Positions 1 to 1,460 of a stretch of 1,514 bases of DNA are shown piece after piece. This stretch comes from Naegleria gruberi. Its lineage: Eukaryota. The stretch is from assembly GCA_000004985.1 (NCBI GenBank), contig GG739398.1, one strand, 5' to 3'. The notes under the pieces were generated by a model. It worked only from the letters and a program-made list of their open reading frames with translations. It made no database searches and was not told the origin of the DNA. Positions within the stretch are counted from its first letter, which is position 1. The number at the start of each line of letters is the position of its first letter. Made by a program: the position numbers and the translations under genes.

Positions 1-301
1 AAATAAATCGCAATACATTACCGAGACAATTAATTAAATCGGCCTTACTCATGGCAACTCCTGTATCAATGATGGTTAAAGTCTTGTTAACCTTATCAGG
101 GATGATACGAATACACAATTCCCTTTCAGTGTCCAAGACTGATGGTTCAGTCAAACTAATATGACGAAGCTTATCCAAAGCATCAGAAGCATTAGAAATC
201 AATTCTCTCAAGAAGATTTCCTTATTGCTATAAAATGTATTGATGATCAAACTCATCAATTGGTTGATTTCAGCTTGAAATTTAAATGTTTCGGTAGACA
301 T
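1..301 (-). CDS. HSP90: Hsp90-family molecular chaperone, N-terminal ATPase (GHKL/Bergerat) domain. 5' end of the gene: ATG at 301..299, about 100 codons in the window, continuing past window position 1
   Basis: Manual reverse-strand translation from the ATG at 301 gives [100 protein letters not shown]. Residues 4-45 are essentially identical to the canonical Hsp90 N-terminus ([41 protein letters not shown]) recalled from yeast, human and plant Hsp90. The start context caagaATGTCT (A at -3, Ser TCT second codon) is typical of a highly expressed yeast gene. No in-frame stop occurs between 301 and 2. Confidence 0.9.
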
Positions 302-313
302 CTTGTTGTTGTA

Positions 314-321
314 TTTTTTTT
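314..321 (-). promoter_or_regulatory. dA8 tract on the coding strand (T8 on the plus strand) 13-20 nt upstream of the Hsp90 ATG. Poly(dA:dT) tracts are nucleosome-excluding in yeast promoters; this one may lie in the 5' leader
   Basis: A run of eight T at 314-321 on the plus strand. Established knowledge: poly(dA:dT) tracts are characteristic of yeast promoters. Confidence 0.35.
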
Positions 322-340
322 CGAAGTAAAATTCGGAAGT
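320..340. promoter_or_regulatory. Direct repeat TTCGRAAGT (ttcgaagt at 320-327, ttcggaagt at 332-340), 20-40 bp upstream of the Hsp90 ATG in the core promoter / 5' UTR
   Basis: Seen in sequence. The second copy contains one of the CGGAA pentamers. The TTC-GAA spacing of 0-1 nt is not a canonical HSE spacing. Confidence 0.25.
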
Positions 341-426
341 GCTTTTTAACAAAAACCTTCTGAACGGAATGTTTTATTGTAAACGGAACGTTCCGTGCAT
401 ACAAAAAATACACAAGACATTCCGTT
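331..426. promoter_or_regulatory. Cluster of five CGGAA/TTCCG pentamers: CGGAA at 334-338, 365-369 and 384-388, and TTCCG at 391-395 and 421-425. It includes AACGGAATG half-sites at 363-371 (plus-strand orientation) and 418-426 (inverted), flanking the central palindrome. Centre-to-centre spacings are about 20, 5 and 30 bp
   Basis: The pentamers were counted directly. About 0.2 occurrences would be expected by chance in 170 bp of roughly 33% GC DNA on both strands, against 5 observed. The spacings in multiples of about 10 bp put the sites on one face of the helix. Confidence 0.4.
383..396. promoter_or_regulatory. Perfect 14-bp palindrome ACGGAACGTTCCGT. Its core GGAAcgTTCC is two inverted nGAAn units (GAAnnTTC), so it is a candidate heat-shock element about 88 bp upstream of the Hsp90 ATG. 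Alternatively it is a CGG-N6-CCG zinc-cluster (Gal4-class) site
   Basis: I verified the self-complementarity of 383-396 by hand. Established knowledge: HSF binds alternating nGAAn/nTTCn pentamers, Hsp90 genes are HSF targets, and Zn2Cys6 factors bind CGG-Nx-CCG. Confidence 0.45.
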
Positions 427-470
427 TAATGTTCAACCAATTCACTGTGAATGTCTGACCAATAAATTAT
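400..470 (-). terminator. Probable 3'-end formation region of the Ser-rich gene (AT-rich, with TTTTTTGTAT and ATAATTTATT on the coding strand); not precisely mappable
   Basis: Position immediately 3' of the TAA at 473..471. Yeast polyadenylation signals are degenerate UA-rich elements. Placement is inferential. Confidence 0.25.
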
Positions 471-1460
471 TTAATTGTTGGGATTGGTTTCAGAAGGATC
501 AGACTTCCTCTTAAATGATGGTAATTTGGGTCTATGTTGCTCAGTATTCTGTCCAGCACTAGTTGGTGGTTGTAAATTAGAAGAGCTATTGTTAGTGGAG
601 GAAGATGCACTTCTTTTCCTCTGGTCACCAACAGGGGGTGCTGCACTCAATGCTTTCTTCTTGTTGAATGAAGAACTTGTTGGGGGTAAATTAGAAGAGG
701 AAGGATTCTTTGTGGTTGTAACAGCAGAAGAGAAACCAATTGAATCAGCAGCAGTTTTGGAAGATGTATTTCTTAGTGAGGCATTAATTGGTGCTCTTTT
801 TGTTGATGAAGAACTTGCTAATACATTGTTGGATACAGTAGATGATGAAGAATTTGTTGATGCAGTATTGGATGATTTCTTCTTGGTTGATGAAGATGAT
901 TCATTTCTTAAATTATTCAAAGATGGTGGTTTCTCTTGAGGTATTCTTTGTGAAGAATTCTTTGAAGAAGAAACTCTTGATGAGTTGGATGAAGAATCAA
1001 TTGTCTTGTTGAGAGACTTGTAAGAGGATGCCAATTGATCATCCTCAGATTCATCTTGAATAACCTTACTCTTCCTTAATGGTAGTGGTAAAACGGTGGC
1101 AGTTTTCTTTTTGTTGCTTGATTCTTTAGACGATTTCTTTTGAGGTGGTACTGAGCTAGCACTGTTATCAGATTCATCTGAAGAATCATCATTTTCTATA
1201 ACTTTAGACTTGACAATATTTCTATTATTATTCTTTTTAACCTTTTTAGGTCTTGAAATCTCCTCATCAGATTCCTCTGGGACGTTTCCTAAAAGTAATG
1301 ATCTTTTTTCCTTTTCAAACCTAGTCTGTTTTTTCTTATTGGTTTTCTTCTCATGCTCATATCTTTCCATTCTAAAATCTTGATACACCTTTTCATAATT
1401 GGAGGATAATTTCTCTCGATTAGCATGTTTAACGAGGTGATCAATTATGGGCTTCCTCAT
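471..1460 (-). CDS. Complete 329-aa Ser/Lys/Asn-rich low-complexity protein. It has a charged, structured-looking N-terminus (MRKPIIDHLVKHANREKLSSNYEKVYQDFRMERYEHEKK), acidic Ser/Asp/Glu clusters (EESDEEIS, DDSSDESDNSASS, DESEDD) and basic clusters (RPKKVKKNNNR, KSSNKKK, FNKKKAL, SFKRKSD). Likely a nuclear or nucleolar phosphoprotein; no confident homolog recognised
   Basis: This is the longest ORF in the window. Its first ATG (1460..1458) lies about 30 nt downstream of an in-frame upstream TAA, and the TAA stop is at 473..471. Codon usage is yeast-like (TCT/TCA/AGT Ser, AAG/AAA Lys, AGA Arg). The non-repetitive N-terminal 60 aa argue against a random low-complexity ORF. The long plus-strand ORF opposite it is compositionally a mirror artefact. 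Confidence 0.7.
   Translation of the reverse strand: MRKPIIDHLVKHANREKLSSNYEKVYQDFRMERYEHEKKTNKKKQTRFEKEKRSLLLGNVPEESDEEISRPKKVKKNNNRNIVKSKVIENDDSSDESDNSASSVPPQKKSSKESSNKKKTATVLPLPLRKSKVIQDESEDDQLASSYKSLNKTIDSSSNSSRVSSSKNSSQRIPQEKPPSLNNLRNESSSSTKKKSSNTASTNSSSSTVSNNVLASSSSTKRAPINASLRNTSSKTAADSIGFSSAVTTTKNPSSSNLPPTSSSFNKKKALSAAPPVGDQRKRSASSSTNNSSSNLQPPTSAGQNTEQHRPKLPSFKRKSDPSETNPNN

Follow-up and report, generated by a model that had tools for sequence, protein, structure and literature searches.

The tolerance of Hsp90 to individual substitutions has been described for yeast Hsp82 in a deep mutational scan that covered six conditions (Flynn et al. 2020, eLife; PMC7069724). At Gly83, the second glycine of the DxGxG signature (motif II) of GHKL/Bergerat ATPases, the G83A change gave s values of 0.0003 and 0.0019 in two replicates under standard conditions and of -0.006, 0.008, 0.019, 0.013, and 0.045 under nitrogen depletion, salt, ethanol, diamide, and 37 °C, respectively. 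For G83S the values were 0.016 and -0.020 under standard conditions and about 0, down to -0.18, under the stresses; G83C fell to about -0.4 (standard) and -0.25 to -0.84 (stresses), and the remaining measured changes lay between -0.8 and -2.0, with similar values under the stresses, stop codons being at about -1 (PMC7069724). Among the replacements measured at this position, only Ala and Ser are fully tolerated and Cys is partly tolerated, Asn and Lys being outside the measured set (PMC7069724). Values for T85S were -0.025 and -0.033 under standard conditions and -0.03 to +0.15 under the stresses, those for I82V were -0.048 and -0.031 and about 0, and those for R78I and S80T were about 0 throughout (PMC7069724). 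At residue 92, the A, S, G, V, I, M, Q, H, D, and E replacements of Asn were all at about 0, with Cys outside the measured set (PMC7069724). In human Hsp90, Gly97 and Asn106, which correspond to yeast residues 83 and 92, are ligand-pocket contacts in a docking study (PMC5012869).

A probable first exon of cytosolic Hsp90

The window, which here means the whole 1,514-nucleotide stretch of DNA that was analyzed, carries the start of an Hsp90 coding region on its minus strand. It has two close relatives, namely, L001 (ENA accession number ERZ929261, a 1,048-bp metagenome contig with protein P0001) and L002 (ENA accession number ERZ27315067, likewise a metagenome contig, with protein P0122). Window residues 1 to 94 carry the same numbers as in Saccharomyces cerevisiae Hsp82, in agreement with the wild-type residues of the scan. 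The features of the coding region are as follows.

22..301, minus strand: probable first exon of a cytosolic Hsp90 gene, 280 nt, ending in phase 1 (translation, gapless Hsp90 match, and homology to the L001 intron)
1..21, minus strand: putative start of a spliceosomal intron, 5' splice site G/GTAATG (intron at the same nucleotide in L001)
53..55, minus strand: codon 83, GCC, Ala, usually the second Gly of DxGxG (yeast G83, human Hsp90-alpha G97; translation)
47..49, minus strand: codon 85, AGT, Ser, usually Thr (translation)
26..28, minus strand: codon 92, TGT, Cys, usually Asn (yeast N92, human N106), found lineage-wide in the window, L001, and L002

The Hsp90 ATG is located at 301..299, and the exon comprises codons 1 to 93 plus one base of codon 94 (Gly). 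Translated literally, 301..1 on the minus strand gives 100 residues that start with MSTETFKFQ and end with LINCLG and then NVLRFI, and the Hsp90 reading frame is free of stops and frameshifts for 94 codons, out of roughly 700 in Hsp90. The N-terminal homology to Hsp90 is gapless (7,988 matches at an E value of ≤0.001, the best at 70 to 87% identity), and the 94 residues are 70 to 79% identical to the Hsp90s of many eukaryotes, represented by thousands of sequences; the nearest named Hsp90s, mostly from plants and various protists, are all at about 70 to 75% identity, and named sequences reach about 75 to 79% at most. By sequence, the closest solved structure is PDB 3H80, "Heat shock protein 83-1," which we take to be the Leishmania major protein and which aligns without gaps over residues 3 to 94 (E value of 1e-40). 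Positions 1 to 91 of the HtpG equivalog model were also matched (E value of 1e-31), with a score under the whole-protein cutoff because only 94 of about 614 model positions are present, and the match to the Pfam HATPase_c model on this fragment was weak and below the cutoff (E value of 0.028), as expected since about half a domain is present. Motif I of the GHKL/Bergerat fold (ExxxNxxD) is present as E33, N37, and D40, positions that are at least 99% conserved in 230 homologs. In motif II, D79 and G81 are kept and the second Gly is Ala, which departs from the strict DxGxG consensus. The motif III/lid sequence (GxxGxG, GQFGVGF), which would be encoded in exon 2 of the gene, is present in L001 and L002, and both relatives reach the charged linker and the region covered by PF00183.

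We consider it highly probable that 301..22 represents the first exon of a functional cytosolic Hsp90 gene, followed by the start of an intron, with constrained residues typical of its lineage and two private, tolerated changes in motif II. The encoded protein would be expected to bind and hydrolyze ATP as a normal GHKL/Bergerat chaperone. A sequence-only reading of this DNA had described residues 1 to 45 as canonical Hsp90, which was borne out, and the N-terminal domain as atypically divergent beyond them. The latter description was not confirmed, given the gapless alignment, the 70 to 79% identity, and the finding that residues 47 to 78 are variable in all Hsp90s.

A probable intron at the window end

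At the edge of the window the minus strand reads TGT CTC G/GTAATG, with GTAATG at 21..16, its first G being base 2 of the Gly94 codon. L001 reads GAT TTA ATT AAT TGC TTG G/GTAATT and has a 102-nt phase-1 intron at the identical nucleotide (G/GTAATT…TTACAG/GT ACT ATT GCT AGA TCT GGA ACA AAG), beyond which exon 2 restores G-TIARSGTK. The donor pentamer GTAAT is common to the two sequences, and the nucleotide similarity between them falls at the donor. A phase-1 intron was called in the window because L001 has an intron at the same nucleotide together with a restored frame; this strongly supports the fallback offered by the sequence-only reading, and NVLRFI is almost certainly intron and not protein. 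The collapse in similarity at the window edge would then reflect an intron rather than divergence. If splicing in the organism from which the window derives proceeds as in L001, the window covers the first 21 nt of the intron, and exon 2 would resume with GT ACN ATH GCN, giving G-T-I-A-(R/K)-S-G-T. Reading through the donor would place V, L, and F at the positions of yeast I96, A97, and S99, three of the 17 sites in yeast Hsp90 that tolerate substitution least. The lid start had also been reported as altered (LINNLGTIAKSGT), a claim that survives for N92C; its remaining changes are a product of reading into the intron.

An alternative donor, GTATTG, located five bases downstream, was rejected, as L001 has no GT there. 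L002 lacks an intron at this site, and its coding frame is continuous across it, indicating presence/absence variation of the intron inside the lineage. The L001 intron (positions 408 to 509) contains an internal duplication of approximately 50 nt, with positions 416 to 454 and 466 to 506 being 95 to 100% identical.

Upstream region and neighboring reading frame

Two further features lie upstream of the Hsp90 ATG.

302..470, minus strand: putative promoter and 5' leader, 169 nt between the upstream TAA and the Hsp90 ATG (blocks conserved with L001 and L002)
471..1460, minus strand: neighboring open reading frame of 329 amino acids, Ser/Asn/Lys-rich, ending with TAA, not part of Hsp90

With a GC content of 35% and an intergenic gap of 169 nt, the window would come from the compact, AT-rich genome of a microbial eukaryote. 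Conserved blocks are located in the 130 to 170 nt upstream of the gene (L001 positions 1 to 127 and L002 positions 390 to 596). One of them, CAC..TTCCG.A.TTTT…AAAAAAA.ACA, about 15 to 45 nt before the ATG, is conserved in the window, L001, and L002, and the block TTTACAATAAA is conserved between the window and L001. TTCCG/CGGAA and TTCnGAA units recur across these upstream regions, and the window promoter has GAAnnTTC at 386-393 and TTCnGAA at 332-338 and 358-364. The GAAnnTTC is the only canonical heat shock element dyad in the window; in the heat shock element counts (one GAAnnTTC and three TTCnGAA), neither motif exceeded the shuffled expectation. The Hsp90 gene is probably heat inducible.

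The 329-amino-acid reading frame matched no Pfam family and no homolog among 5.8 billion protein clusters, and a search for its exact sequence returned no entry. It has a weak match to the reading frame upstream of the L002 Hsp90 gene (14 of 34 identities; E value of 8e-4), which may mean that a fast-evolving orphan gene has kept its syntenic position. A plus-strand reading frame at 475-939 is most likely its antisense shadow.

Relatives and selection

Among the 5.8 billion protein clusters, the closest protein was P0001, at 87% identity to the 100-residue read-through query (BLASTP). Over the 94 coding residues, the window is 90% identical to L001 (85% at the nucleotide level) and 87% identical to L002; P0122 and the spliced L001 protein share 84% identity. 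Nine of the 94 residues differ between the window and L001, and five of these differences are clustered at residues 78 to 85. Using the Nei-Gojobori method on 282 coding nucleotides, dN/dS was 0.048 for the window and L001 (dS of about 1.0), 0.121 for the window and L002, and 0.095 for L001 and L002. Residues K7, L45, R60, and C92 are common to all three sequences, I48 is common to the window and L001, and positions 2, 63, and 82 differ in all three. Private amino acid changes number two in the window (A83 and S85), four in L001, and seven in L002; by this count the window branch is not lengthened and has the fewest private changes of the three. On the same alignments, the shared K7, L45, R60, and C92 are lineage traits under purifying selection, and this constraint, together with the shared upstream region, fits orthologous, expressed genes. 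The earlier suggestion of a lineage with a genuinely unusual Hsp90 can be kept in the weak sense that these four residues are shared and constrained.

These comparisons also bear on whether the locus is a decaying duplicate, that is, a young pseudogene with its first lesions in motif II and the lid. A literal reading of the lid, in which the intolerant I96, A97, and S99 would all be replaced, fits such a duplicate, but the conserved intron explains that reading. The 94 codons contain no stop or frameshift, dN/dS is 0.05 to 0.12, the branch is not lengthened, and the upstream region, including the promoter, is conserved. All seven positions within residues 1 to 94 that are critical in the yeast scan (R32, E33, N37, D40, D79, G81, and G94) are intact. 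We therefore regard decay, which the sequence-only reading had listed among its explanations, as very improbable.

Searches for sequence extending the window returned no match in two scans of JGI metagenome contigs with back-translated lineage signatures, nor in a scan of viral contigs. A scan of bacterial and archaeal genomes gave one match, to an ordinary planctomycete HtpG, which was picked up because YTN also encodes Phe and was set aside as irrelevant. The HtpG gene of a planctomycete metagenome-assembled genome (L003, positions 2668 to 4563) also carries RHISLTEP, a string that had seemed unusual on first reading.

Several database entries required care. The gene call for P0001 (L001 positions 128 to 493) runs through the intron and translates TGA as Trp (NYFYIISWFLNK), and it looks like a prokaryotic gene-caller artifact on a eukaryotic contig. 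Truncated or read-through first-exon "proteins" of this kind make up the majority of top matches for Hsp90 N termini. In L002, an in-frame TGA at positions 1629 to 1631 (RRVFIMDN[TGA]EDLIPEYLNFIKG; context VFIMDN[TGA]EDLIPEYL) occupies a site that is Cys in 44 of 45 homologs, and past it the frame yields 67 further codons of Hsp90 before the contig ends. This suggests either that Cys is encoded by UGA, in the manner of the euplotid nuclear code, or that a TGY codon was misread as TGA; the former, if real, would help to place the whole lineage taxonomically. The window Hsp90 frame contains no in-frame TGA, and the upstream reading frame has no Cys and ends with TAA.

Residue usage among Hsp90 homologs

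To place the individual residues, the window was compared column by column with a panel of 230 homologs, which is biased toward sequences resembling the queries. Positions 47 to 78 are variable throughout this panel, and most window residues there are common variants, including H47 (26%), P53 (41%), V55 (41%), and R65 (25%), as is V82 (21%). The window residues at 78, 80, and 82 (R78I, S80T, and L82V) are likewise common natural variants. IRH follows ALDK in 58 of 236 sequences, and the LRH of the window differs from this common variant solely by I45L. Eight residues are rare, each being found in less than 3% of the panel: K7, L45, I48, R60, C63, A83, S85, and C92. The residues that look odd at this locus would fall into three classes. 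The first would be ordinary variation in the segment from 47 to 78, and the second would comprise residues kept by purifying selection, either in both relatives (K7, L45, R60, and C92) or in one (I48). The third would consist of G83A and T85S, which are conservative, private, and located in the DxGxG loop.

Substitutions in motif II

Motif II reads D79-T-G81-V-A83-M-S85, the plus strand being GGC at 53-55. The literal statements of the sequence-only reading, among them GCC as codon 83 and the Thr-to-Ser change, were all confirmed. Position 83 is Gly in 225 of the 230 homologs, Ala in two, Ser in two, and Cys in one; position 85 is Thr in 223, Glu in five, and Ser in two, one of which is P0099. 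Four homologs thus carry Ala or Ser at position 83, namely, P0041 (Ala; an MMETSP transcript), P0072 (Ala; a JGI/ENA metagenome contig), and P0042 and P0087 (Ser; both from ERR run accessions in the "merc" source), and at least three of them are from transcript-derived marine-protist catalogs (MMETSP/"merc"). The combination of A83 and S85 is absent from L001, L002, and all 230 homologs. Ala and Ser are both the alternatives tolerated in yeast and those that recur naturally at this position. Since G83A is wild-type-like in yeast and Ala or Ser occurs in natural Hsp90s, the second Gly of DxGxG is not an absolute requirement, and its replacement alone in an Hsp90 should not be taken as loss of ATPase activity. 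This reading treats yeast fitness as an indirect proxy for ATPase kinetics, obtained in a different Hsp90 background from that of the window, which also has C92 and L45. Position 92 is Asn in 213 of the 230 homologs, with Ser, His, and Leu as other rare variants. A subtle kinetic or inhibitor-binding effect of these residues may exist, with no pointer to loss of function.

The sequence-only reading had expected the motif II change to alter nucleotide binding and had proposed an ATPase-impaired paralog. Neither is supported, in view of the dN/dS of 0.05 to 0.12, the branch length, the conserved promoter, the wild-type-like behavior of G83A and T85S, and the natural occurrence of Ala and Ser. 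A related possibility is a functionally diverged paralog, with a canonical copy elsewhere in the genome. In it, nucleotide or inhibitor binding would be altered by A83, S85, and C92 jointly, with a slower ATPase or resistance to ansamycin- or resorcinol-type natural products as examples. In keeping with this, A83 and S85 are private and lie in a loop lining the adenine/inhibitor pocket, the docking contacts of which include human Gly97 and Asn106 (PMC5012869). Residues 78 to 85 moreover hold five of the nine differences from L001, and synonymous divergence is about the same for each pair of the three lineage sequences. However, G83A and T85S are neutral in yeast under six conditions, R78I, S80T, and L82V are common natural variants, and the window branch is the shortest of the three. 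The canonical relatives also have the promoter blocks, and the upstream reading frame weakly matches that of L002. Taken together, we judge a diverged paralog to be unlikely. If the gene encodes the main cytosolic Hsp90 of its organism, it is also quite improbable that the private A83/S85 and the lineage-wide C92 have reshaped the adenine/inhibitor pocket by adaptation and not drift, with altered ATPase kinetics or resistance to Hsp90-targeting natural products as the outcome. A change in inhibitor binding through these three residues would, if true, be of modest interest for Hsp90 pharmacology.

A base-calling or assembly error, with GGC (Gly) and ACT (Thr) as the true codons, would account for both motif II changes, as each is a single second-position G/C transversion (GGC to GCC and ACT to AGT), they are 6 nt apart, and L001 has GGC ATG ACT. 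Two independent errors would nevertheless be needed in a nonrepetitive stretch, each producing a conservative and experimentally tolerated residue, and we give this explanation hardly any weight. Under the favored interpretation of a functional first exon, the biological weight of the locus is small, as it would be an ordinary Hsp90 gene of a eukaryotic lineage that has been little sampled.

Comparison with known Hsp90s

The relatives L001 and L002 resemble the window in the shared strings DKLRH, SLTEP, TERELxI, (I/V)NCLG, and FKFQAEINQ, and L001 additionally has the same intron site with a 5' GTAAT. Both differ from the window in having a canonical G-x-G-M-T, and L002 also differs in lacking the intron. 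The homologs with Ala (P0041 and P0072; G[IV]AMTK) or Ser (P0042 and P0087; GISMTK) at position 83 are otherwise normal Hsp90 N-terminal domains that share the altered position with the window; unlike the window, they belong to a different clade (GTIAQSGTKAFMEAV), at about 70% identity, and keep T85 and N92. Compared with yeast Hsp82 and Hsc82, human HSP90AA1, and the 3H80 chain, the window has A83 in place of Gly, S85 in place of Thr, C92 in place of Asn, L45 in place of Ile, and K7 in place of Ala, whereas Cys at position 63 is shared with the 3H80 chain (LCIR). Like eukaryotic cytosolic Hsp90s, the window retains motif I (E33…N37xxD40), D79, G81, and G94.
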